From Candidatus Omnitrophota bacterium (GTDB lineage Bacteria > Omnitrophota > Omnitrophia > Omnitrophales > Aquincolibacteriaceae), in contig JAZDJU010000037.1 of assembly GCA_043803685.1 (NCBI GenBank), positions 32,001 through 96,000 of the forward strand: a stretch of 64,000 bases of DNA, in the 5' to 3' direction. Made by a program: the position numbers and the translations under genes. Under the pieces are notes generated by a model that saw nothing but the letters and a program-made list of their open reading frames with translations, ran no database searches and was not told the DNA's origin. Shown piece after piece: positions 2,207 to 55,715 of the stretch. Numbering within the stretch: position 1 is the first letter of the stretch; each line of letters begins with the position of its first letter.

Positions 2207-3862
2207 TTATACCTTCGGCGGTTCCGTGCCCTGAGTCAAAAAAGACCTCCGAGGATTGACCTTGCCGAATTCCTCAAAAATAGCCTCGATCTCGTCGTAA
2301 TCAAGTTCCTGTTTGGTCAAAAGCTCGTGCGAGAAACGTTCAAAAAGATCCTTTTCCTTCCGGAGCAGGGCATCCACTTCGGTCATGGCTTCCTTGAGGA
2401 GCTTGTCCACATCCTGATTGAGACGCATCTTGACGTCTTCGGAAAGGAGAAGCGCGTTGCTATCCTTGTAGATCGTATAATCCCCGATCATTCCGGAAGC
2501 TCCCATGCCGAGCACCCACACCATGAAATGAGCAAGGTTCATCGCCTGTTTGAAATCCGAAGTCACTCCGGTCGTGCTGGTGTTGAACTTGATCTTCTCG
2601 GCCACGTAACCCGCCAGGCAGATCTTGATATCCGCAAACAGGGTTTCGCGATCCCGACCATGCCATTCCTCGATCGAGGTAGGATGCACGACGCCGAGCG
2701 ATGATTTTCTCGGAATGATGGAAGCCTTGAACACATCATCGCGAGGATGCGACAGATAGGTCACGATCAAATGACCCGACTCGTGATAAGCGGTCATCTC
2801 CCGCTCCCGCGCATTCACTGTAAGCTTTTGTTTCATCCCGAGCTCGATCCTCTCGATCGCTTCGGAAATATCGCGCAGACCCACAACATCCTTTTTATTG
2901 CGCGTGGCGATCAGAGCCGATTCCTTCACAATGTTCTCGATATCCGCGGGCGACTTATCGACCGCTTTTCGCGCCAGGCGCTTGCAATCGATCCCCGCCT
3001 CGTATTTGATCTTGCTCAGATAGAAGCGAAAAAGGGATTCGCGTCCCTCAAGATTCGGCTTTTTGATATACACCTTACGATCAAAGCGACCCGGACGGAG
3101 AAGCGCCGGGTCCAGGATATCTTCCGAAGCGTTCGTCGCTCCGATCACAATGATGTTCTCCGACCTGTCCCCCAAACCGTCCATGGCGACCAGGAGCTGG
3201 TTCTGCGTGGTGTTACCCTCACCGCTTCCGAACTGATTGAAGGTACGGCGCTGGCCCATCGCGTCCAACTCATCGATAAAAACGATGCAGCCTCCGAACC
3301 CATAGGCCAGACGCTGCGCTTTCTTGAAAAGCTGCCGCACGCGACTCGCGCCGACACCGACGAAGACCTCGTGGAATTCACTCGCGGCCATGGACAAGAA
3401 TGGAAGCCCGGCTTCCGTCGCGATAGCCTTGGCAAGATACGTCTTCCCGCATCCCGGAGGCCCCATCATGAGAATACCGCGCAAGATCCTCCCGCCGATC
3501 TTTTTCAAGCGCGCGTGATCCTTAATGAGCTGCACGACTTCCCAACATTCGTCTTTGGCTTCATCGATCCCGATCACGTCCGAGAACTTGATCTGGACCT
3601 CTTTGGTCTTGATGCTTTTTTTATCAAGCTTCGAGAACCCGCTCCGGAAGACCATCATGTACATGTAGACGAAGATCACGGAGTTGATAATGACCATGAG
3701 GATCTGGAGCGGCAGCTGCGCCAGGGTGATATTCCGGTAATAGCTTTCGAGAGACGCCATGCCCCAGATCGACAGGACCACAAGGAGTACGGCAGCGAAA
3801 ATAATGGCCGCCTTCACCCAGTGGTCCATGAGAAATAATTTCCAACGACGCCATTTATTCAT
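2207..3862 (-). CDS. ftsH: FtsH-like ATP-dependent zinc metalloprotease
   Basis: two N-terminal TM helices, Walker A GPPGCGKT, pore loop FVGVG, Walker B VFIDE, SRH ALLRPGRFDR, HESGH zinc motif. Confidence 0.92.
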   Translation of the reverse strand: MNKWRRWKLFLMDHWVKAAIIFAAVLLVVLSIWGMASLESYYRNITLAQLPLQILMVIINSVIFVYMYMMVFRSGFSKLDKKSIKTKEVQIKFSDVIGIDEAKDECWEVVQLIKDHARLKKIGGRILRGILMMGPPGCGKTYLAKAIATEAGLPFLSMAASEFHEVFVGVGASRVRQLFKKAQRLAYGFGGCIVFIDELDAMGQRRTFNQFGSGEGNTTQNQLLVAMDGLGDRSENIIVIGATNASEDILDPALLRPGRFDRKVYIKKPNLEGRESLFRFYLSKIKYEAGIDCKRLARKAVDKSPADIENIVKESALIATRNKKDVVGLRDISEAIERIELGMKQKLTVNAREREMTAYHESGHLIVTYLSHPRDDVFKASIIPRKSSLGVVHPTSIEEWHGRDRETLFADIKICLAGYVAEKIKFNTSTTGVTSDFKQAMNLAHFMVWVLGMGASGMIGDYTIYKDSNALLLSEDVKMRLNQDVDKLLKEAMTEVDALLRKEKDLFERFSHELLTKQELDYDEIEAIFEEFGKVNPRRSFLTQGTEPPKV

Positions 3863-4082
3863 AAAAACCGCCTTTTCTGAAGAAAAGTTAAGTGGGAGTG
3901 ATCCCGAAAAACAGCGTGGATTATACCTGTTTTAAGGTCAAAACACACGCCTTAGTGCTGATTCCCCATAACCTTTTAATCATACCAGCACAATACCGTT
4001 AACCCTCCAAATTAAGGGAGAACGGTATAGAATTTCGGCAGAAATGTCATTCCCTTGAGAAGTGAACGCGCAACGCTGAGTT

Positions 4083-4156
4083 TCCCCCTCTTTGAAAAAG
4101 AGGGGCCAGGGGAGATTTCAAATCCCCCTCAAGTCCCCCTTTGCAAAAGGGGGAGA
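4083..4156. repeat. pair of inverted REP-like palindromes
   Basis: TCCCCCTCTTTGAAAAAGAGGGG..GGGGAGATTT followed by an inverted copy AAATCCCCC..TCCCCCTTTGCAAAAGGGGGAG. Confidence 0.7.
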
Positions 4157-4308
4157 ATTGGTTGGACAACTACGGCATGAAATAGAACACACACCCTTAC
4201 GTCAAGGCGTTGAAAGGAAACGCGAATGGCTCAAGAGAAAGGGTTTCGCCGCGGACTTTGAGAGAGAGCCCGTAATCTCCACAAATGCGTTCGAAAGCTT
4301 TCCGACGT

Positions 4309-4807
4309 TTACCAGTTGGGCTTACACCCTTGGGCGGAAAAACCAGCTACGCCACCGTCGGCAGTCACATAACCTGCCGAGCATTCCCATTTATCAGCAT
4401 TAACGCCCGTATGAAAACGGGCTATGGTGGGAACACCTGAAATCGGAGTACGAGCTGCTGCGCAATAGTACTCTCCTGCGGATGTGCTACACGTGTACCG
4501 AAAATCCTTTTGTATAATATTCCCCATGCCAAGAGAGCTAGGGGGAGTGCAAGTACTTGGAGGCGCAGCACAAATGAATGCCTCAGGCGTTGTCGACCCC
4601 TTGAGATCCATGTTTGCTTGTTGGGCGCGAATCAGAGCGCCAACCATTTGATAGGCTTCAGCCATTTTTGCTTTTTCAGGTGAGCCCAACATTCGAGGGA
4701 TGACCAAAGCCGCAAGAACACCGATGATCACCACGACGATCAAAACCTCAATCAGCGTGAATCCCTGCTTGCTTGCTTGCTTGCTTGCTTGCTTTAGATC
4801 GTCTCAT
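4309..4807 (-). CDS. type IV pilin / prepilin-type protein, out of frame at an (AAGC)7 tract as assembled
   Basis: G|FTLIEVLIVVVIIGVLAALVIP motif from 4764; SD AGGAG and ATG at 4807 in a different frame; the pilin frame has TGA at 4806-4804; six Cys in the C-terminal domain. Confidence 0.9.
4767..4794 (-). repeat. tetranucleotide simple sequence repeat (AAGC)7
   Basis: seven perfect GCTT units on the plus strand. Confidence 0.97.
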
Positions 4808-4902
4808 GCCTTCTCCTGCTGATCCGGCCATTTTTTCGGCGTCAAAACATCCGACCCTCTGGGGCTCTACAGTAAAACGACTTCACGAGGGGAAATCTTA
4901 AA

Positions 4903-5376
4903 TCACCACCAGGTGTCTTCCTCTTTTTTCGTCGATGCGGCATCCTCGGTCTTTGACTCCGCCGCGGGCTCTTCCACGACTTCTTCGTTCAGGACCTTCT
5001 CGGTTTCTGGAGGAATTTCCGGAAGAGGTTCCGAAACCGCTTCGGCATGGGAATCCGTTTGAGGGTCCTTGGGTTCTTCCTCCCACCAGCTTGAGGTTCC
5101 CGCCGGCGAAGCGGCCTCCACGGCAACGGTCTTGGCGGAAGAATCTGTTTTTTCTTTTTCAATGGGAGGATCGATCAAGAAACCTTCCCGGGGAACATTC
5201 TTAACGTGATACATCAACGGCCCCTTTTTGCCATCCTTCTCCTCTTCCTTTTTCTGTTCATAAAGAATGGGATTGGTCTGCGTATCCCGGACAGGATCCT
5301 CCGACCTCCGGATCGACCCTACGTTCAGGCCCGCGAGAACACTTACAAAGATGAGGAACAAAATCTTTTTGTTCAT
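4903..5376 (-). CDS. hypothetical exported/membrane-anchored protein with acidic low-complexity tail
   Basis: start re-assigned to MNKKILFLIFVSVLAG (signal-like); E/P/A/K-rich C-terminal half ending EEDTWW. Confidence 0.7.
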   Translation of the reverse strand: MNKKILFLIFVSVLAGLNVGSIRRSEDPVRDTQTNPILYEQKKEEEKDGKKGPLMYHVKNVPREGFLIDPPIEKEKTDSSAKTVAVEAASPAGTSSWWEEEPKDPQTDSHAEAVSEPLPEIPPETEKVLNEEVVEEPAAESKTEDAASTKKEEDTWW

Positions 5377-5432
5377 AGGTAAAGGGTACCCTATGCAGAC
5401 GCAAAGCGCAAATGTGCGCTTTGTGTGCGTCT

Positions 5433-5489
5433 CGGGAAACGGGGAACGTCGGACGCTTGCGTCACCCGTTCCACGTTCACCGTTCCCCG
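5433..5489. repeat. heptamer tandem-repeat dyad (CGGGAAA-type)
   Basis: CGGGAAA CGGGGAA CGTCGGA / CGTCACC CGTTCCA CGTTCAC CGTTCCC; overlaps the uvrA stop codon. Confidence 0.75.
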
Positions 5490-8248
5490 ACATATTTTTT
5501 TAAATACCGCCCTGTATAGGAACGCTCGCACGCCATAAGTCCTTCCACCGTGCCCTGATAGACCACTTCCCCGCCTTTGCTGCCCCCTTCGGGCCCGAGA
5601 TCGATCACGTGGTCCGCGAGACGGATCACCCCCAGATGGTGTTCGATCACAAGAAGCGAATGTCCCCGGTCCATCAATTCCTCAAAAGCCCGGATAAGAT
5701 GCCGCACATCATCTTCGTGAAGCCCTGTGGTCGGTTCATCCAGAAGATAAAGGAGCGATCCGGAACTTTTGCAGGAAAGTTCAAATGCGAGTTTGAGCCG
5801 CTGAGCCTCCCCACCCGACAGGGTCAGCGTCGACTGCCCGAGCTTGAGATATCCGAGACCGATCTTCTTTAAAGTGGATAGCTTCTCCGTAAGCCCCTTG
5901 CTGGCCGTCAAAAAATCCGCGGCCTCCTCGACGGTCATCTGGAGCACCTCGTCGATGTTCTTGCCCTGATACCGGATCTCGAGCACCTCGGGCTTGAAAC
6001 GCTTCCCGTGGCATTCCTCGCACGGCACAAAGATGTCCGCGAGAAAATGCATCTCGACTTTCACCGCGCCGTCGCCCTCGCAGACCGGACAACGCCCCTT
6101 CTCGACATTGAAGGAAAAATACCCCGCGTCGAATCCTTCGCGGCGAGCTTCAGAGGTCGCGGCGAAGAGCTTCCGGATCTCCTCGAACGCCTTCATATAA
6201 GTCGCCGGATTGGAGCGCGGCGAACGGCCCAGAGGCGATTGATCGATCATGGCAATGTCCTCCAAAGGCTCGAACCCGCGGATTTTCTTCACGCTCCCGA
6301 GCTCCTCCTGGGACACGGGCCGACCTTTCGCCTTGAGAAAGTGATTGTAGAGGATCTCATAAAGGAGTGTGCTTTTCCCGGAACCCGAGACGCCCGTCAA
6401 GACCGTGAATTTCCCAAGCGGCACCTCGACATCGATCTCTTTTAAATTATGCGCCTTAGCGCCGTGGATCACGATCCGGTGTTTCGCCGGCGTTGCCGCG
6501 CGAGCCCTTCTTTCGATCCCGCGTTTTCCGGTCAGATATTCCCCCGTCACCGAACCCGGACATCGCTTGAGTTCTTCGACACTTCCCTGAAAGATCAGTT
6601 CGCCGCCCTTCGCGCCTCCCGAAGGCCCGAGATCGATCACCTGGTCCGCGGCGCCGATCATGGTCCGGTCATGCTCCACGACCACTACCGTATTCCCAAG
6701 GTCCCGGAGCTTGCGAAGAAGCGTGATCAGCATCTCGTTGTCACGCTCATGGAGCCCGATACTCGGTTCATCCAGCACGTACAGGGTGTCTACTAGGGCC
6801 GAACCCAAGGAACTGGCCAGATGGATGCGCTCCACCTCCCCGCCCGAAAGCGTTCGCGACATGCGGTCCAGTGTCAGATAACCGAGCCCGACATCCTTCA
6901 GGAACCGGACACGGTTGAGGAGCTCTTCCTGCACCGGCCCTACTTTTTCCTTTTCCCCCGGAGTCAGCTCCAACGTTTCAAGGAACGGAAGGAGCGCTTC
7001 AACACTCAGGGCCTGGACTTCCGCGATGTTTTTTCCTGAAACAAGAAAGTCCAGCGCCTCGGTTTTAAGACGCGTCGTGTGACAAGTTCCGCAGGGCGCG
7101 TAGCCGCGAAAACGGTTGAGAAAGATCCTCACATGCACCTTGTAGGTCTGCTTGTTCATATATTCAAAGAAGCCACGGACGCTCACAAAGTCGTCGCCGG
7201 GATAGCCCTCGAGGATCCATTTCCGGTGCTGGGCCTTGAGCTCCTTCCAGGGCACGCGGATCGGAATGCGCTTGCGCTGGCAGAAGTCGAGAAATTGTCC
7301 CTGTTCCCAGCGGGTACTGGGCGTGGTCCAGGGTTCGATGACCCCGTCACGGATCGACCGATTGCCGTCCGGAACAACGAGATCCCAATCGATCGTAATG
7401 ACACGGCCGAATCCCTGGCAGGACGGACACGCGCCGAGAGGGCTATTAAAAGAAAAAAGGTTCGGCGACGGTTCCGGAAAGGAACGGTTGCAGGAAGAAC
7501 AACGTAGCTTTTCTGAAAACCTCAGGACTTTCCCGGCGACCCACGCCTGGGCATCGCCGCGTCCCAGACGAAAGGCTTGCTCGAGTGAATCGGTAAGTCT
7601 TTCCTTGCGCGAGCCTTCGATCTTCAAAAGGTCCACGCTTACTAAAAGATCCCCTGGGACGGTTTTGGTTCCGAGAAAGGCCGCCGCGTCGAGCCACTTG
7701 CCGGAATGAAAGAAACTGCTGAACCCTTGTCGTTCCAGTTCTGCCAGGTTCTCCCGGAGATATTTCGGGGCCTTTTTCCCAAGCGCCATTTGAAAAACAA
7801 TGCGCGCTTCCTGTCCCCCGAACTCCGCAACCAGGTGCGCCGCCGCTTTGTTGGGATCATACTTTTCGACGGGGACCTGGCACCCGGGGCACAACAAACG
7901 TCCCGCGCGCGCGAACAGGACCCGCAAGTGATCGTTGATCTCGGTCTGAGTCCCGACCGTGGAACGGGCGTTGGTGATCGAATTCTTCGCCTGGATGGCC
8001 AAGGCCGGAGGAATCCCCGATGCGGACTCGAGGTCGGGCTTCGGCATTCGCTCGAGGAACTGACGCGCGTAAGCGGAAACGGATTCGATGTAGCGGCGCT
8101 GACCTTCGGCGTAGAGCGTGTCAAAAGCCAGGGAGGATTTCCCGGAGCCGGAGACACCGGTAATGACGTAGAGTTTCCGGTGCGGAAGTTCGAGATCGAG
8201 ATTCTTTAGATTGTGGGTCTTAACCCCACGGAGCCGGATCGCATCCAA
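5477..8248 (-). CDS. uvrA: excinuclease ABC subunit A
   Basis: two ABC ATPase modules (GVSGSGKSS, LSGGE, GVSGSGKST), zinc fingers, FSFNSP motif; TTG start at 8248 chosen to avoid overlap with the upstream gene. Confidence 0.93.
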   Translation of the reverse strand: MDAIRLRGVKTHNLKNLDLELPHRKLYVITGVSGSGKSSLAFDTLYAEGQRRYIESVSAYARQFLERMPKPDLESASGIPPALAIQAKNSITNARSTVGTQTEINDHLRVLFARAGRLLCPGCQVPVEKYDPNKAAAHLVAEFGGQEARIVFQMALGKKAPKYLRENLAELERQGFSSFFHSGKWLDAAAFLGTKTVPGDLLVSVDLLKIEGSRKERLTDSLEQAFRLGRGDAQAWVAGKVLRFSEKLRCSSCNRSFPEPSPNLFSFNSPLGACPSCQGFGRVITIDWDLVVPDGNRSIRDGVIEPWTTPSTRWEQGQFLDFCQRKRIPIRVPWKELKAQHRKWILEGYPGDDFVSVRGFFEYMNKQTYKVHVRIFLNRFRGYAPCGTCHTTRLKTEALDFLVSGKNIAEVQALSVEALLPFLETLELTPGEKEKVGPVQEELLNRVRFLKDVGLGYLTLDRMSRTLSGGEVERIHLASSLGSALVDTLYVLDEPSIGLHERDNEMLITLLRKLRDLGNTVVVVEHDRTMIGAADQVIDLGPSGGAKGGELIFQGSVEELKRCPGSVTGEYLTGKRGIERRARAATPAKHRIVIHGAKAHNLKEIDVEVPLGKFTVLTGVSGSGKSTLLYEILYNHFLKAKGRPVSQEELGSVKKIRGFEPLEDIAMIDQSPLGRSPRSNPATYMKAFEEIRKLFAATSEARREGFDAGYFSFNVEKGRCPVCEGDGAVKVEMHFLADIFVPCEECHGKRFKPEVLEIRYQGKNIDEVLQMTVEEAADFLTASKGLTEKLSTLKKIGLGYLKLGQSTLTLSGGEAQRLKLAFELSCKSSGSLLYLLDEPTTGLHEDDVRHLIRAFEELMDRGHSLLVIEHHLGVIRLADHVIDLGPEGGSKGGEVVYQGTVEGLMACERSYTGRYLKKYVGER

Positions 8249-8766: not shown

Positions 8767-11700
8767 TTAGAATTTCCCGGTCATGCGCACGAACGGCCCG
8801 TGACTCTTGAAGCTGTTGGTGTCGCGAAGATCATCGCTGAAATCGGTGAAATTATATCCCACCCCGAGGCGAACGTATTCATAAAATTCACGGTCGATCT
8901 CGACCAGAGCGCCCTGCTTCAAGGTATCAAGGGCGTAGGTCTGCGCCAGAATCCGGTATTCGAGAGCCAGGTCCCATTTACGCGTCACGTGGAAGTTGAT
9001 CCTGTTCGCGGAAAGGAACGCATTCACATTGACCGTGTCACCCGTAGAACTGTGTGTCCACGAGTGCTTAAAGGCCAGTTTCTCCACAAGGCTAAAATAG
9101 CGGTTCACGTCATAAGCCACGTCCGTCGCGAGGATATGGGCCGACTGGTCGAATTGATACCCGCCGTACTGGTTGTCATTGTACTGCGCATCAGAACCAA
9201 GGTCGCGAAGATAAGTGTAACGCGCGAGAAGGTTCAACTTGTCCAGTTTGATGGGACGGTAGGCAAACCCCGTGCTGCATTCCATGAAATTCGCCGGAGT
9301 GTTATTGGGATCCGTCTGACGGGTATCCCCGTAATTCATGTAGGAAAGGAAGCCCAGGTCTTCGTTGATCTGATAGCTGAAGGAATTACGCGTGACGATC
9401 TGTCCGATGTTGGGAGAATCCTGATCGTGACGCAATTCCCAGTAGGTCCGCGCCCGAAGCTTCTTGCCGTTCGCGTAGGCCAAGTTGGCGCCCGCGGTGT
9501 TATAATCGTTGGCGCGAATAAGCGAATTCTGCGCCGACTGATCGAGCAACCGGGTGCTGGAACCCTGCAGGTGGCGACGTTCATACTTCGCGCCGTAATC
9601 CCAATGGTCCCCCGCCTTTCCTTCGTAACCCAGAATGTCCGCGGCGCTGTCACTTCCATGATAGGAAGAATATTCGCGCTCCGAATAGACGCGCGACTTT
9701 TCCGTGAGCGCGAACGAATTCCCGATCGCGGTCGCGAGCGTCTTATCTCCGATCCCGCGATCCATGGAACGGATATTCGCGTAGCTGCGCGCGCCGTTGG
9801 GGTGCTGGCGCTCGAACCCGAAATAGGTCGAATCTCCGAGAGGCCCGATCATTTCTTCCAGGTAGGCAAAGAGATTGTTCACGATCTGATAACGCACACC
9901 ACCGCCGAACTGATTGTCATGCCATCCCCCGATCGCGGTCTGGACCTTTACGTAAGGCAGGAGCCGGTCATTAACGTGATAGCCCAATTTTCCCGTAACC
10001 CCGTTCCTAAAAGGGATCTGGTTCGTGAGATCCGGCAACAGATTGCCGACATCCTGAACCTGATCCAGATTGCGCCGCTGATATTCCAGTTCCGCGAGAT
10101 ATTTGCCGTCGTCATATGCAAGCTGGGCGGTCTGAACCTCAAGGGTCTGGTAAGGCGCGAGGGTATTCGTAACATTCAGAGGCATCAGTTCACTCAGAAC
10201 AGAGGAACGGTCATAACGATACCGGGCAGACAAACTATCCGTGAACTTGTACCGCGTGGATAGTCCGTACTTTTGTAAGCCTTCCTGGTCGCGCATATAA
10301 CCGTTCGAAAAACCCGGATCCACGCCCTGAACATAACCGCTTGTCTCAAGACGCTTGACGGGTTCGGAAGAAGCGCGGATCAGGTACGCGCCCTCCTGCT
10401 CCTTTTGATGCCTCCCACTCAGGGAACTCAGATCCGCGTAGCTAATACCGCCATCATAGGAAACCGAGGTCCCCGTTTGAGGGTTGATCGTCCGCGCGTA
10501 TTCCGCCGTCAACTTCGTATTGCGCCCAAACTTCATCATGGCGTCCACGCCGACCATGTCATAATCCTTGCCGGGCCGGTGTTCCGTAACCCCGGTCGCG
10601 CCGAGCCTCACGTGATCGCCCATCCAGGTGTATCCTCGAATACCTTGGTTCGTGACCGAAGGATTGACCGAGGTGGGATCGTATTCATAATCCACGATCA
10701 GGTAGACCGGACTTCCGTCCAGAATATCGACGGACGTCATGGTATCGGCCGCGGCCATAGAAGAAAGAGGCCGGGAAAGAAGGATGCGGCCTTCTCCATA
10801 AATGATCTCGTAATCGACGCCTTCCTGAAGATCGTAGCTTGCGACCGTCATGTTCTGGATCTTGTCACGGATCTCGACGCGGATCTTCTCGCTGCCCTCC
10901 ACGATATTCCGGTTACGCGTGTAGAAGAGAGAACCCCCGGTGGCGTAAAGTTCGTTATGGTCCGCCTGGTGTTTAGAATCCGCGCTAAAAACTTTGAATC
11001 CCCGCTTCGGATCGCCGTAGGCCGTACTCGAGACCGTGTCGAAGTTGACCTTCAACCCGGAAAGCGTGCGATTATAGGTAGCAAGCTCGGTGTCCGTGAA
11101 CGCGGTCTTGAAGCTCCCCCACTGCGCGTAAGAGCGGTCCATTTCAACCAACACGAAAAGTTTCTGGGCCGTGTCCTTCGCCTGGTAATCGCGCGTCGAA
11201 TTGTCCCCGTAGATCGGATAGTAGTCGTTCGGATTGAGGTTCGTGAAAAGCGCGGTCCCTTCGGCCGCGGTGTCGTACTTCGCCTTCACAAGGAACTTGC
11301 CCTTGAGCTTCCCCTTCAAAAAGAGAGACATGCGGCCCTGCTCGCGGAACCCGTCGCGATAGACGTCGGACTCCGCGGCCTCCATCGCGCCCGTCGCTTC
11401 GTTCAAACCGAGCTGTTCTTCACCCAAAGCCACCATGAAGAACATGCTGTCCTTCACCTTAACCTTCTTATGGAAGCTCGTGATCTCTCCCTCCGGCGTC
11501 GTGGCCGACACGGTCATGTCATATTCGCCAGGCTCCACGATGAATTCCTTGTGGAACATACCGCTCTCCGAATCGACCGTCACGGGAGTCTCGTTGATCA
11601 TGATCTTGTTCTTGGGCAAAGTCTTTCCCTGCACGCGAACGACCGGTTTCGCCACAAGAGGAATGCTTCGTTTGCCGTCCTTAAAGAGATTGAAATCACC

Positions 11701-13431
11701 CACGGGAGGGATCTCGGGATGATAGTTCGCCTTACCCTTAGGATCCATCTTGGTCATGACTTCGAAAAATTTCAGCGGGGTCCAGTCCTCGCGGTTCTTG
11801 GCATCACGAACCTTGAATTGATAGGAGTAGATCCCGGGCTTGACCAAAAGCCCTTGATTGGTGATCCCGGACCATGTCACTTCCGGCGGCGGCTGCCCGA
11901 CCCCGTAACCGGTCCAAACAGGCTGTCCCATTTCGTCACGAACCTCAACCGTCCACTTCCTGATGAATTTCCCGTAATTGTTGTCGAACGTGAAGCTGGG
12001 TTCTTTCTCAAGAACGCCCACTCCAAGTTTCAGGACGTCAGGAGACACCTGCACGTCCAGGGTCGATTCCGCTACATCCACGCCCTGCGTGACCATCACG
12101 CTCAGATCTTTCTGAAAAGCCTCGGGGATCTCTGAGGGCGGCAACAGCACCGCAAAGTTCGCCTTGTTCATGATGCCCGGCGTGGTCTTCACAAGATACG
12201 CTTCTTCCGTAATGAACTTCGTCCCTTCGGGCAGGCTATGACCGTCGATCTTCACCACGTGCCGGCCGGGGCTCACTCCAGGAATATGATAGAGACCATT
12301 CTCATCGGTGACGATCGCGATTCCTTCCTCCGTATAAAGATGGGCCCAAGGAACTCCGACCTCACCACAATCCTGGACGCCGTTCTGGTTAAGGTCGTTA
12401 AAAACCTTTCCGATGATCGTTCCCTGTTCAAAGACCGGATCGCCCTGGACCATGAACTTCAAGGTCGCTGTTTCCGAAAGCGTGCCAGCCCCCACCAAGG
12501 TAAACTCCATCGAATACTCTTTCCCGATCTGGACACCGCTTGTCACGAGCAATGAAAAGCTCGTGGTATACACCTCGCCGGCTCCGATCGCCCCCACAGG
12601 GATGATCAAAGATCCTTCCCGGTAGCTGGCCTGCTGACCGTTCACGCGGATCGATTTCGCGGCGTAGTCGAAACCGTGAGGCAGGGTCGCCCTGAGCTCC
12701 ACGCCGGTTAACGTATTTCCGGAAGCGTTGTTATAGCGGGCATTGATCCCTACGGCATCCCCCGGCGCGACATTCCGTTTCGAAGCGGACACGCTCAATT
12801 TTTCGGGATTCACTTCGCCGTTGGCTTTATCAAAACAGACGATCCCCGCAGCGCCCCCGAAAGTCCTGAGAGTGAAAACAACGCGCTGGGTTCCCGCAGG
12901 AGCAGTCCCTGCCGCCGTGAATGTTTGAAATCCTGCGCCGGCGTTGGCGTTGGCGGTCGTGATATAGACGGAAGGTGCGGTTGAAATAAGCGTGTCCGAA
13001 CCGTCGGGATTGATCTTCTTGAACTCAATGACAAGCTGACCGCCCTGGTTCCCGGCGCCTATCAAGATGGTGGACTCTGCCAAAGCGCTGAACGTAACGT
13101 ATTGCCCGGGTTTTACATTGTTCGCGACCTGGAAAGTGAAGTTCCCCGCGAGGCTGTTCTGACTGATCGCAAAGAGTCCATCGGGAACATTGGAAAACCC
13201 TCCCACAGGCTTAGTCGTGTTGGTGAAACGGGTGGTGCCGTTCGTGCTGTCCCAGTTTCCGTTGGAACCGCTCCCGATATCACTCTCGAAACTATAGTTT
13301 CCGAGCAGGTTCGCAAAGGCGAGCGGCACGCCAAAGGCCACAAAGCAGACCAGAAAACAAGCGAGCGGGAAGAAGTTCTTCATCTTCTTTTTTCCATCGC
13401 TTTTCCGTTCTGTCGTGACTTGGAGGCTCAT
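8767..13431 (-). CDS. large probable outer-membrane protein (DUF11-like and SdrD-B-like Ig domains, C-terminal beta-strand-rich region)
   Basis: signal peptide near 13383 (MKNFFPLACF...AFA); GKVFNDLNQNGVQD..E.GV motif; alternating aromatic beta-strands; terminal Phe (RMTGKF); start 13431 or 13383. Confidence 0.8.
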   Translation of the reverse strand: MSLQVTTERKSDGKKKMKNFFPLACFLVCFVAFGVPLAFANLLGNYSFESDIGSGSNGNWDSTNGTTRFTNTTKPVGGFSNVPDGLFAISQNSLAGNFTFQVANNVKPGQYVTFSALAESTILIGAGNQGGQLVIEFKKINPDGSDTLISTAPSVYITTANANAGAGFQTFTAAGTAPAGTQRVVFTLRTFGGAAGIVCFDKANGEVNPEKLSVSASKRNVAPGDAVGINARYNNASGNTLTGVELRATLPHGFDYAAKSIRVNGQQASYREGSLIIPVGAIGAGEVYTTSFSLLVTSGVQIGKEYSMEFTLVGAGTLSETATLKFMVQGDPVFEQGTIIGKVFNDLNQNGVQDCGEVGVPWAHLYTEEGIAIVTDENGLYHIPGVSPGRHVVKIDGHSLPEGTKFITEEAYLVKTTPGIMNKANFAVLLPPSEIPEAFQKDLSVMVTQGVDVAESTLDVQVSPDVLKLGVGVLEKEPSFTFDNNYGKFIRKWTVEVRDEMGQPVWTGYGVGQPPPEVTWSGITNQGLLVKPGIYSYQFKVRDAKNREDWTPLKFFEVMTKMDPKGKANYHPEIPPVGDFNLFKDGKRSIPLVAKPVVRVQGKTLPKNKIMINETPVTVDSESGMFHKEFIVEPGEYDMTVSATTPEGEITSFHKKVKVKDSMFFMVALGEEQLGLNEATGAMEAAESDVYRDGFREQGRMSLFLKGKLKGKFLVKAKYDTAAEGTALFTNLNPNDYYPIYGDNSTRDYQAKDTAQKLFVLVEMDRSYAQWGSFKTAFTDTELATYNRTLSGLKVNFDTVSSTAYGDPKRGFKVFSADSKHQADHNELYATGGSLFYTRNRNIVEGSEKIRVEIRDKIQNMTVASYDLQEGVDYEIIYGEGRILLSRPLSSMAAADTMTSVDILDGSPVYLIVDYEYDPTSVNPSVTNQGIRGYTWMGDHVRLGATGVTEHRPGKDYDMVGVDAMMKFGRNTKLTAEYARTINPQTGTSVSYDGGISYADLSSLSGRHQKEQEGAYLIRASSEPVKRLETSGYVQGVDPGFSNGYMRDQEGLQKYGLSTRYKFTDSLSARYRYDRSSVLSELMPLNVTNTLAPYQTLEVQTAQLAYDDGKYLAELEYQRRNLDQVQDVGNLLPDLTNQIPFRNGVTGKLGYHVNDRLLPYVKVQTAIGGWHDNQFGGGVRYQIVNNLFAYLEEMIGPLGDSTYFGFERQHPNGARSYANIRSMDRGIGDKTLATAIGNSFALTEKSRVYSEREYSSYHGSDSAADILGYEGKAGDHWDYGAKYERRHLQGSSTRLLDQSAQNSLIRANDYNTAGANLAYANGKKLRARTYWELRHDQDSPNIGQIVTRNSFSYQINEDLGFLSYMNYGDTRQTDPNNTPANFMECSTGFAYRPIKLDKLNLLARYTYLRDLGSDAQYNDNQYGGYQFDQSAHILATDVAYDVNRYFSLVEKLAFKHSWTHSSTGDTVNVNAFLSANRINFHVTRKWDLALEYRILAQTYALDTLKQGALVEIDREFYEYVRLGVGYNFTDFSDDLRDTNSFKSHGPFVRMTGKF

Positions 13432-13450
13432 AAAGTTCTTATCGTCAGAG

Positions 13451-15094
13451 TTAGAAACGCCGGCTCGAAAACTTGAAACCGAAACGAAGATCGTAATTGG
13501 GGATGAGCGGCGCCTCCCCTTCCTGCTTGACGCGCTGGGCTCCGCCGATACCGCACCACTCGCCGAAGATCGCCATCTTGGAAAGCCACTCGTTCTCTTT
13601 CCACCGGTAATTCCTGAACGGCATGATCCGCATCCCCGCCGCCACAAAAAACTGGTTCTGATACCAGAATGAGAACTCCGCGTTGTTCACGTGCTCGAAG
13701 CGCATGTACGGCATCAACACCAGTTCGTCATTGATGTAATTGTGAGGGAGAGGGATCCCGGGAAGTTTGACGCCCAAAATGACCGAAGAGTTGGCGATAA
13801 GCGCGTTGAAACTTTTTTCGGAACTGAACCCCGTTTTGGAGACATAGTAATTTCCGAAATACTCGCCCCAAACATACTGGCGGATATAATCCGAAAAAAC
13901 TTCGGGCTTCGCCTCGTCGAGCGGCGGAAGTTCCGTGCCCCATTCGTAGTAGCACTGAACACCCCAGATAAGCTCATTGTCCCGGCTGCCCGTAATATCC
14001 CCTTTGAGATTGTAAAGATTGCCGTACTTGATATAGAAGCGGTAATTGCGCATCCATTCGAGGATCGGAATGCCGCCGAAGGGCTGGAAATTGAGAAGCC
14101 AGGGATTACGCGCGAGAGGTCGCCATTCCAACCCCGCGAACACCTGGAGATTGCTGGCATAATCCGCGGAATCGGACTGCAAGCTGACCGTCTCTTCGAT
14201 GAAAGGGTCGATATTGTGCAGGGGGAAACGGATCCCGCTAAAAACCAAACGATTGGTCCAGTAGCCGACCTGGGTGTCGAAATGATTGGAAGCGAGGTTT
14301 GTGAGACGCCAGCTACTCTCGCCGAAAGACTGCCAAGTGATCGACGTGCCGCACGGAGGTCCCTGAAGGACTCCGTACATCTTTTCCCCGATGCCCAGCT
14401 GGTCCGTGAACTTAAGAATGAGTTCTTCTTCCTTCTGGAATTGCGCGGGCGTCTTGATCTCGATCGGTTTCTCAACCTCGGGTACGTAGAACGGCGTGGA
14501 GCGCACGGCCTCTGAAAAATTCCCACCCTGGAGCTCAACGTTCGTCTTGCTCGCAATGATCGCCGTCATGGCTTCTTCCGATGACGCAAACGCCCGGTCC
14601 CCGACCCAGAAAAGGTTCGCGACGCCGCCCTTCGCATTGGGAATGGAAAGCTGACGTATCTCGACGCCCTGGAAATTGGCGGTCTTGACATTCTTCTTCA
14701 CATAATCATCGAAGGCCTTCATATCTTTAAAGCCGGAGAGAGGCCGGGACTTCACAGCGCCGCCGCCGAAATCTGTGATCACGGAGAATTCGGAATCATG
14801 CTCACGAGAGTGGCTCTTCAAGACCGGGAACCCACGGACCTGGGTCACCTTATGATCAAGCTTCTGTGAACCGGAGGCAAAAAAACGTTCTGCAAAAGGA
14901 TTGGAAGCGGGTTTGACCGGAACCGAAGACTTGGGGCTTTTCTTCGCCGCCTCCAAAACAGAAACAGCTTCTTTCTTTACGGGCGCAACGACAGGCTTGA
15001 TCTCAATGACGGGAGTTGTTTCTTGAGCGAAGGAGGAAAAGGCTGTAGACAGGAAAATAGCGATGAGGACTATTAAAAAGTTTTTAACTCTCAT
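13451..15094 (-). CDS. hypothetical exported protein, probable C-terminal beta-barrel
   Basis: signal peptide (SFA|Q), aromatic-rich amphipathic strands, C-terminus YDLRFGFKFSSRRF. Confidence 0.7.
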   Translation of the reverse strand: MRVKNFLIVLIAIFLSTAFSSFAQETTPVIEIKPVVAPVKKEAVSVLEAAKKSPKSSVPVKPASNPFAERFFASGSQKLDHKVTQVRGFPVLKSHSREHDSEFSVITDFGGGAVKSRPLSGFKDMKAFDDYVKKNVKTANFQGVEIRQLSIPNAKGGVANLFWVGDRAFASSEEAMTAIIASKTNVELQGGNFSEAVRSTPFYVPEVEKPIEIKTPAQFQKEEELILKFTDQLGIGEKMYGVLQGPPCGTSITWQSFGESSWRLTNLASNHFDTQVGYWTNRLVFSGIRFPLHNIDPFIEETVSLQSDSADYASNLQVFAGLEWRPLARNPWLLNFQPFGGIPILEWMRNYRFYIKYGNLYNLKGDITGSRDNELIWGVQCYYEWGTELPPLDEAKPEVFSDYIRQYVWGEYFGNYYVSKTGFSSEKSFNALIANSSVILGVKLPGIPLPHNYINDELVLMPYMRFEHVNNAEFSFWYQNQFFVAAGMRIMPFRNYRWKENEWLSKMAIFGEWCGIGGAQRVKQEGEAPLIPNYDLRFGFKFSSRRF

Positions 15095-36583: not shown

Positions 36584-37043
36584 TTAAGCCGCAGTAGCGG
36601 TTTTTTTCTTACTTGTCGTTTTCGCGTCTTCCGGCGTTCTTCCGCACCAGATGTGTTCCCCTTCACGAACTTCCACCGTCAAGTGGGTAGTCCGTTTCAG
36701 GATCTTATCCGCACGCCCCATCGAACGGGTGAGGAACCGCTTGAACACTGGCCCACCGTCAGCGCGAACATTCGAAACATAAAGACGATTTTCATTCAGT
36801 CCCAGGTTCTTAGCATTCGCGATAGCGCTTTTCAGCGTCTTGACCGCAAGTTTCGCACCCTTTTTTTTTAAGAAGCATCAGGATCCCGACCGCTTCCAGA
36901 GCCGGCTGCCGGCGGATCGTATCGATCACAAGACGCATCTTTCGCGGGGCGATCCTAATATGCTTCGTGAGCGACCGGACCACGCGCGGCGACGGCGCGA
37001 CCATTTGTTTCACTTCTTTGATTTCTTTTTTTTCTTTAGCCAT
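36584..37043 (-). CDS. rplV: 50S ribosomal protein L22, split by one extra base in an A9 run
   Basis: N-half IRIAPRKMRLV; removing one A at 36861-36869 gives KSAIANA...GRADKILKRTTHLTV and a 152-aa protein. Confidence 0.93.
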
Positions 37044-37057
37044 GATGTTCTTTCAGA

Positions 37058-54516: not shown

Positions 54517-55715
54517 TTACGCGATGATCTCGCTGACAACGCCGGCACCGACCGTTTTTCCACCCTCACGGATGGCGAATCGGAGCTCTTTTTCCATTGC
54601 GACCGGCATGATCAGTTCCGCTTCGATTGCAACGTTATCGCCCGGCATGACCATCTCAACGCCGGCCGGCAAAGTCACGATCCCCGTAACATCGGTAGTG
54701 CGGAAATAAAACTGAGGCCGATACCCTTTGAAGAACGGCGTATGACGGCCGCCCTCCTCCTTGCTTAACACATAGATCTGCGCTTTGAACTTTTTGTGAG
54801 GGGTCACGGAGCCAGGCTTCGCGATAACCATCCCTCTTTCGATCTGATCCTTTTCAACGCCGCGCAAGAGAAGACCGACGTTATCGCCGGCACGCGCATC
54901 ATCAAGCAGCTTGCGGAACATTTCAACGCCCGTCACCGTGGTCTTCATCGCACCTTCTCGAAAACCGATGATCTCGGCATCATCTCCAACCTTGACCACG
55001 CCGCGCTCAATACGACCGGTGGCAACCGTTCCACGACCGGAGATGGAAAACACGTCTTCCACCGGCATCAAAAACGGCTTTTCAATATCACGCTTCGGCT
55101 CGGGATGGCTTCATCCAACGCCTTAACGAGATCCATAATGCACTTGTTGGCTTTTTCATCCGTAGGATTCTGGACCGCGGGAAGGCTGGAACCGCGAACG
55201 ATGGGAATCGTGTCACCCGGAAAATCGTATTTCTTAAGAAGATCCCGGACTTCCATCTCGACGAGGTCGAGAAGTTCGGTGTCTTCGACAAGGTCACATT
55301 TATTGAGGAACACCACAACCGCAGGCACACCGACCTGGCGGGCGAGCAGAATGTGCTCACGAGTCTGGGGCATCGGTCCATCCACGGCAGAAACGACCAG
55401 GACCGCACCGTCCATCTGCGCAGCGCCCGTGATCATGTTCTTGATGTAGTCTGCGTGTCCCGGGCAGTCGACGTGGGCATAATGGCGTTTTTCCGATTCA
55501 TACTCCACATGGGAGACCGCGATCGTTACGATCTTGGAATCGTCACGAACCGTTCCACCCTTGGCGATATCCGCATATTCACGAACCGTCGCCATCCCCT
55601 TCGCCGACAACACCTTCGTCAAAGCGCAGGTCAAAGTTGTTTTTCCGTGGTCCACGTGTCCGATCGTTCCGACGTTCACGTGAGGCTTGGTACGTTTAAA
55701 TTGCTCTTTTGCCAT
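54517..55715 (-). CDS. tuf: elongation factor Tu, split by a one-base deletion near 55102
   Basis: [21 protein letters not shown] in the first ORF; domains II/III in the second; one added base restores [15 protein letters not shown]. Confidence 0.96.

Follow-up and report, generated by a model that had tools for sequence, protein, structure and literature searches.

The window, by which we mean the whole stretch of 64,000 nucleotides that was analysed, contains on its minus strand a type IV pilin gene with a tetranucleotide repeat tract in its leader region (4309-4817). The features of the locus, listed in the direction of transcription, are:

4813..4817, minus strand, Shine-Dalgarno-like sequence AGGAG, 5 nt before the ATG, read off the sequence
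4805..4807, minus strand, leader start codon ATG, overlapping the upstream stop of the pilin frame (TGA, 4806-4804)
4767..4794, minus strand, perfect (AAGC)7 tract, translated as cyclic K-Q-A-S in each of the three frames, free of stops on this strand
4748..4807, minus strand, open reading frame from the ATG as assembled (the OFF product), 19 aa followed by TGA 4750-4748
4747..4764, minus strand, prepilin motif G|FTLIE (Gly-1, Phe+1, Glu+5), located in frame +1 with respect to the ATG
4741..4743, minus strand, TTG (Leu+8 of the motif), the first start-type codon in the pilin frame, 4 nt past the stop of the OFF frame
4312..4761, minus strand, mature pilin from Phe+1 to Trp, 150 aa with six cysteines, from translation, homologs and structure model
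4309..4311, minus strand, stop codon TAA of the pilin frame, read off the sequence
4191..4210, minus strand, weak terminator-like hairpin about 100 nt past the pilin stop, not significant (one found, 2.4 expected from shuffles)

Counted from the ATG, the Gly codon begins after 43 nt. The tract starts 13 nt from the first base of the ATG and ends 2 nt from the Gly codon (GGA, 4764-4762). The codons of the motif are GGA TTC ACG CTG ATT GAG, and the protein reads G|FTLIEVLIVVVIIG. In the pilin frame the TGA at 4806-4804 is followed by 13 codons, the Gly codon and a frame that stays open to the TAA, giving 151 residues counted from Gly and 150 counted from Phe. Neither ATG, GTG or TTG nor a near-cognate start is found among the 13 codons between this TGA and the Gly codon. 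Since 13 of the 42 conserved genes of the window end with TGA, the codon serves as a stop in this genome, and reading TGA 4806-4804 as a sense codon could be ruled out. The list of open reading frames contains 4309..4743, a product of 144 aa starting at the TTG and comprising neither leader nor motif. Initiation at this TTG is hypothetical.

The number of units was varied alone with a script (n up to 15). A full-length open reading frame starting at the ATG was obtained at n = 0, 3, 6, 9, 12, and 15 (164 aa at n = 6 and 168 aa at n = 9), and every other n gave a peptide of 11-27 aa, with 19 aa both at n = 7 and at n = 8. As assembled, with n = 7, the window gene is OFF. At this length it lacks a short basic leader that starts in frame; it would have one at n = 3, 6, 9, or 12. 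At n = 3, 6, or 9 the leader before Gly-1 comprises 9, 13, or 17 residues, respectively, which lies within the range found in 133 homologs (4-38 residues, median 10). The whole tract precedes the Gly-1 cleavage site, and each in-frame n would therefore result in one and the same mature pilin. The repeats are read AAG-CAA-GCA-AGC, i.e., KQAS in three frames with no stop, so that the encoded peptide is basic and compatible with a leader at any length.

In these points the initial annotation was right throughout. It had described the AGGAG, the ATG at 4807, the seven units at 4794-4767 and the prepilin motif, the 43 nt between ATG and Gly and the 19-aa product, and a pilin frame stopped at 4806 and startless before the motif. 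It had also stated that six or nine units restore the frame and that every in-frame repeat number yields an identical mature pilin of 150 aa.

The tract was recovered by Tandem Repeats Finder (TRF) at 4766-4794 with a period of 4, 7.2 copies and 100% matches. Our script found no second tetranucleotide repeat of at least three units in the 64 kb of the window, in which long dinucleotide or pentanucleotide tracts are also missing; the multi-locus character of a phasome is thus not seen within these 64 kb. When the 28-mer was searched with up to three mismatches allowed, a single site was found in the window, with 0.00 sites expected from 100 shuffles.

Downstream of the tract the gene codes for a type IV pilin of Candidatus Omnitrophota that is intact and conserved, as judged from sequence profiles, homologs, invariant cysteines and the fold model. 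The typical N-terminus of type IV pilins (G|F-x-x-x-E followed by a hydrophobic helix) is present. The protein matches the N_methyl profile PF07963 (E = 5.6e-5, 23.0 bits, cut-off 21.2) and TIGR02532 (26.0 bits, cut-off 16.3). When 5.8 billion proteins were searched with a word index, 202 matches were obtained, and all ten legible organism names among the matches with E <= 1e-9 are Candidatus Omnitrophota. The lineage was assigned from this one gene. An exhaustive HMMER search of 1.84 billion representatives returned 4711 matches at E <= 0.001 but only two at E <= 1e-30, namely P0001 (66-70% identity) and P0002 (53-57% identity). The pilin therefore belongs to a rare subtype of a large pilin family. 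Six cysteines are invariant in an alignment of the four sequences of the window protein, P0001, P0002, and P0004. In the AlphaFold2 model, computed from 65 sequences (pLDDT 87.6, pTM 0.77), a helix from residue 4 to 55 is followed by a beta-sheet, i.e., the predicted structure has the pilin fold with a long N-terminal helix on an antiparallel beta-sheet. The top matches of this model in a Foldseek search against the PDB were the Neisseria gonorrhoeae pilus (5vxx_A, probability 0.96, TM 0.48) and the PAK pilin (1oqw_A, probability 0.94, TM 0.54); all of the best eight are pilins or pseudopilins, with weak E-values of 0.09-0.9. Type-4a pilus genes are reported from most Omnitrophota genomes, and a role in attachment to host cells has been proposed for them (PMC10066038).

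The pilin gene is an orphan located between a gene for an FtsH-like protease and uvrA. On the same strand lie a rubrerythrin gene, an unknown open reading frame of 474 aa, the FtsH-like AAA protease gene, an unknown open reading frame of 196 aa, uvrA, and an open reading frame of 1626 aa. No pilus machinery (prepilin peptidase, assembly ATPase, platform protein or secretin) was found among the scanned genes of the 64 kb window, and no promoter-like site in a scan of 3900-5600. A search of the whole window with Rfam yielded two tRNAs only and no element near the pilin gene. The 1626-aa open reading frame (8767-13647, minus strand), 4 kb upstream of the pilin gene, has SdrD_B, DUF11, and FlgD_ig-like domains and probably codes for a surface adhesin. 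It is preceded by an unknown open reading frame of 547 aa (13451-15094). A frameshift joining these two reading frames, which would be a third assembly error, could be ruled out: they are two genes, as an in-frame ATG (13431) follows the upstream stop. In the FtsH-like AAA/M41 protease (2207-3862, minus strand, 551 aa) the match to the FtsH profile does not begin until position 112, and the protein seems, from its sequence, to lack the usual N-terminal membrane and periplasmic part. Inside this reading frame ARAGORN reports a 96-nt tRNA-Lys (3221-3316, minus strand), which is probably a false positive because it has no match in Rfam.

Among the homologs, the closest ortholog is P0001 (NCBI locus tag V1882_08570), which stems from a Candidatus Omnitrophota MAG. 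Its annotated start, 'MEVLIVVVIIG', lies inside the motif, so the annotated protein has neither leader nor Gly-1 nor Phe+1; the mature part, however, is full length and 70% identical to the pilin of the window. Leader and motif are present in 134 of the 135 homologs that were fetched (133 by pattern, plus P0089 with FTLAE), the sole exception being P0001. In the 150 best representatives of the 4711 matches the N-terminus is missing in three, P0001, P0214, and P0261. A truncated annotation is hence an event of 1-2% among the homologs, and one such event falls on the nearest ortholog. In P0214 and P0261, both homologs of the Omnitrophota type, the annotated start 'MVIIG...' is situated inside the N-terminal helix and leader and motif are lacking; contig-edge calls, errors or other disrupted leaders are possible reasons. 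The leaderless annotation of P0001 is what an out-of-frame leader tract shared with the window gene would produce.

Leaders with an ASKQ repeat, which the initial annotation had proposed as a sign of related loci, did not turn up in the in-frame homologs (0 of 134 leaders). The closer members of the subfamily, P0002, P0004, and P0193-P0195, have no KQAS-repeat leader. We also ran protein searches limited to the leader and helix, both for the window gene and for a Phycisphaerae gene having 13 units (see below). They brought up no further KQAS-repeat leader: in a set of 55 proteins only P0136, the protein of locus L007, has one, and P0137 contains a single unit. In the lineage of the window the tract looks recent and rare.

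At the DNA level, 185,579 species genomes were scanned for (AAGC)3+ followed after 0-30 nt by G-F-[T/S]-L-x-E. The scan returned 15 loci. One of these, L009, was rejected as a chance match to the pattern. Ten loci (L001, L003, L004, L005, L006, L008, L010, L011, L012, and L013) code for ordinary prepilins; they come from several phyla, and each has exactly three units and an in-frame start. Their leaders hold SKQA, ASKQ or the shorter ASK, and such three-unit leaders could be the seeds of longer tracts. None of the Omnitrophota species genomes (GTDB) among the 185,579 has the pattern. When the C-terminal 124 aa of the pilin were used as query against the contigs of the species genomes, 187 pattern matches were obtained, none of which encodes a relative. 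The remaining four loci come from one Phycisphaerae MAG (WRDM01000056, 27, 35, 31):

L002, tract at 520-535, n = 4, in frame only with a GTG
L007, tract at 1-22, n at least 5, located at the contig end
L014, tract at 5035-5054, n = 5, ON, its ATG in frame and preceded by AAAGGA
L015, tract at 4961-5012, n = 13, OFF, no in-frame start

The homologous ATG of L015 is out of frame and 14 or 11 units would be needed; the mechanical call of its reading frame starts after the motif, comparable to the truncated annotation of P0001. All four tracts are read as KQAS in the leaders of prepilin-type genes coding for about 300 aa. The N_methyl profile is matched by all four proteins and DUF1559 by two of them. 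The mature parts are 25-50% identical and the tracts are perfect. Judged from their sequences, the four genes appear to make up a phase-variable multigene family of a planctomycete. They share with the window gene the AAGC tract in a leader upstream of G|FTLIE and the KQAS reading. Unlike the 150-aa pilin of the window, they are of the DUF1559 type with about 300 aa, their tracts end 17-30 nt from the Gly codon instead of 2 nt, and several copies are present in one genome. As the four loci differ in n and include one ON and one OFF copy, the design of an AAGC tract in a prepilin leader recurs independently, at several tract lengths and in both states. The initial annotation had suggested a search of related genomes for prepilin genes preceded by (AAGC)n; longer tracts of this kind were found in the one Phycisphaerae MAG, and no Omnitrophota species genome matched.

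We considered several reasons why the pilin frame could be without a start. The first is an error of the assembly. A surplus base could have been called in the GGG at 4765-4763 or in the AAA at 4795-4793, the OFF state would then not be biological, and the gene would always be in frame at n = 7. The indels in tuf and rplV that the initial annotation had mentioned were both found, each of the two genes being split in this assembly. The tuf gene (54517-55715, minus strand) is the sole copy in the window and is situated between tRNA-Thr and tRNA-Trp-secE-nusG. It is divided into two open reading frames of 215 and 184 aa, which match positions 1-205 and 214-395 of the EF-Tu profile, the frame being broken by the lack of one base in ...ATCCC|GAG... 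near 55095. This break is most likely an assembly indel. The rplV gene (36587-37052, minus strand) is split at an A9 run (36861-36869), with matches to positions 3-42 and 35-103 of the L22 profile. A8 or A11 would restore its frame; the split could be a homopolymer miscall or, less likely, a real tract rescued by transcriptional slippage. Moreover, leaders ending with ...SKQAG| are known in the unrelated prepilins L001, L008, and L013, and a repaired reading at n = 7 would therefore have a normal leader.

Nevertheless, an assembly error is an unlikely explanation for the pilin gene. Apart from tuf and rplV, the conserved genes checked in the 64 kb (about 42 in all) are whole as defined by full profile coverage or expected length, and from these counts we estimate a chance of about 0.1-0.3% for an error in this very stretch of 43 nt. 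At the pilin gene an inserted base would be needed, whereas the error in tuf is a deletion. Furthermore, the nearest ortholog P0001, which comes from an independent MAG, is also without a leader, and the 13-unit copy of the Phycisphaerae MAG is likewise out of frame. Even if a base had been miscalled, only the statement that the gene is currently OFF would fall; the tract would stay and could still be mutable.

The second alternative is that the gene is a decaying or silent pilin paralog in which the frameshift has become fixed, the tract being the leftover of a repetitive leader with no role in switching. The orphan position between the FtsH-like protease gene and uvrA, with no pilus machinery in the window, would fit such a gene, as would the many pilin paralogs in Omnitrophota genomes, several of which can occur on one contig, and the missing leader of P0001. 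The state of the gene itself argues against decay. The frame of 151 codons is intact, the motif and all six cysteines are conserved in comparison with relatives of 51-70% identity, and P0001 has kept a full-length mature part. The lack of any mismatch in the 28 nucleotides of the tract points to slippage or homogenization that is still going on, not to decay. We therefore regard a fixed, nonfunctional gene as improbable.

Recoding at n = 7 has little to recommend it: a +1 slip of tRNA-Lys at TCT-AAA-G, where AAA-G permits re-pairing on AAG, or termination and reinitiation at TTG 4743, which is only 4 nt apart from the OFF stop, would be conceivable from the sequence, but neither a stimulatory element (a rare or stop codon after the AAA, a correctly spaced internal Shine-Dalgarno sequence) nor an Rfam element is found in the region, and the leaderless 144-aa product beginning at Leu+8 would lack Gly-1, Phe+1, and Glu+5 and could be neither processed nor assembled as a pilin, so that this alternative is very improbable.

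Switches of the kind considered here are known from other bacteria. In autA/autB of Neisseria meningitidis and Haemophilus an AAGC tract is located just after the start codon within the region coding for the signal sequence, and its role as a phase switch has experimental support (PMC5118866). The numbers of units given there are 3-19 for autB of Neisseria, 17-30 for Haemophilus and 6-40 for autA, and in the strain surveys it reports repeat numbers are variable and the states mostly OFF (PMC5118866). The window gene shares with autA/autB the repeat unit and its position, as well as the logic by which just some of the repeat numbers keep the frame and the mature protein remains unchanged. The proteins are different, however. 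AutA and AutB are autotransporters with a Sec signal peptide and the window protein is a pilin, so the likeness is one of mechanism only. In addition, autA/autB belong to host-adapted pathogens of another phylum for which variation between strains has been demonstrated, whereas the window locus is known from one sequence.

In the opa genes of pathogenic Neisseria, CTCTT repeats lie in the region of the leader peptide (PMC3960869). The opa system resembles the window gene in that a coding repeat in the leader switches the frame, and as a multigene family with a separate switch for each copy it resembles the four Phycisphaerae genes. Its repeat is a pentamer, though, and codes for the hydrophobic stretch of a Sec signal peptide, and its products are outer-membrane adhesins, not pilins. 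In analyses with PhasomeIt at least five tetranucleotide units are taken as indicative of phase variability (PMC5953494); the seven perfect units of the window tract exceed this threshold. The tract is also placed such that gain or loss of a unit switches the frame, with the ON state only at n = 0 mod 3. For type IV pili themselves, other routes to stochastic presence, absence or change are known. The pili of Neisseria phase-vary by frameshift in pilC, an assembly/adhesin gene rather than the pilin gene, and Moraxella bovis switches pilin genes by site-specific inversion. With respect to fast switching, seven units are at the short end, and classic phase-variable organisms carry many such tracts.

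In our view the best reading of the locus is a slipped-strand contingency locus, in which changes of the repeat length would toggle the pilin in nature; judging from the sequence, we give this reading a probability of about 0.65. It is favored because the tract is real, perfect and unique in 64 kb and the frame logic is exact; because the downstream gene is not decayed, having 151 open codons, six invariant cysteines and a confident model with pilin fold; and because, as indirect evidence, the nearest ortholog is annotated without a leader and the design recurs in a Phycisphaerae MAG, with autA/autB as a precedent. It is weakened by the two indels in about 42 genes, the single tract in 64 kb, the lack of KQAS-repeat leaders in 134 homologs and the lack of a pattern match in Omnitrophota.

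The contingency locus could work as follows. Slipped-strand mispairing during replication would add or remove units of 4 nt and shift the frame. The ATG is joined to the frame of G|FTLIE only when n is divisible by 3, and two of three lengths give reading frames that end after a short peptide. At n = 7 or 8 the reading frame closes after 19 residues and presumably no prepilin would be made. The tract always codes for the basic, leader-compatible KQAS peptide and is stop-free in three frames. In the ON state prepilin peptidase would cut at Gly-1, as is typical of the family, and all ON lengths would lead to the same pilin of 150 aa. The benefit may consist in the stochastic display or loss of one type of pilus subunit, with consequences for host attachment or exposure to phages.

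The initial annotation had interpreted the locus in the same way. The anatomy that it gave is right and the contingency locus is the best-supported reading, but it overstated the design as undescribed, since the AAGC tracts in autA/autB and the CTCTT repeats in opa precede it; the prepilin leader as target and the lineage appear to be new. Full-text searches brought up no paper on a tract of this kind in the leader of a type IV prepilin, nor one on any contingency locus in Omnitrophota, and the word 'repeat' is absent from PMC10066038. An SSR switch in a cleaved N-terminal signal is thus an established principle, of which the prepilin leader and the lineage are the new parts.

A wider interpretation can be offered more tentatively, at somewhat less than even odds. 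AAGC repeats encode KQAS in all frames and never a stop, and they are therefore able to expand inside any basic N-terminal leader. AAGC tracts might be a convergent, frame-neutral switch cassette that was recruited independently into the Sec signal peptides of autA/autB, into the prepilin leader of an Omnitrophota bacterium and into a prepilin-like multigene family of a Phycisphaerae bacterium, with three-unit SKQA leaders as seeds; the switch in Omnitrophota would then toggle a pilin serving in host attachment or as a phage receptor.

Genes gated by such repeats are systematically mis-annotated as leaderless 'hypothetical proteins', as exemplified by P0001 and by the 13-unit copy of Phycisphaerae. 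To our knowledge, nearly all cases of phase variation driven by repeats come from pathogens and commensals adapted to a host. If our reading is true, the locus would mark the first proposal of a contingency locus in the uncultured, host-dependent Omnitrophota. If the switch works, the repeat number per read would be a simple marker in metagenomes, and its presence would suggest a part of bet-hedging on attachment organelles or phage receptors in shaping ultra-small, probably host-dependent environmental lineages as well.
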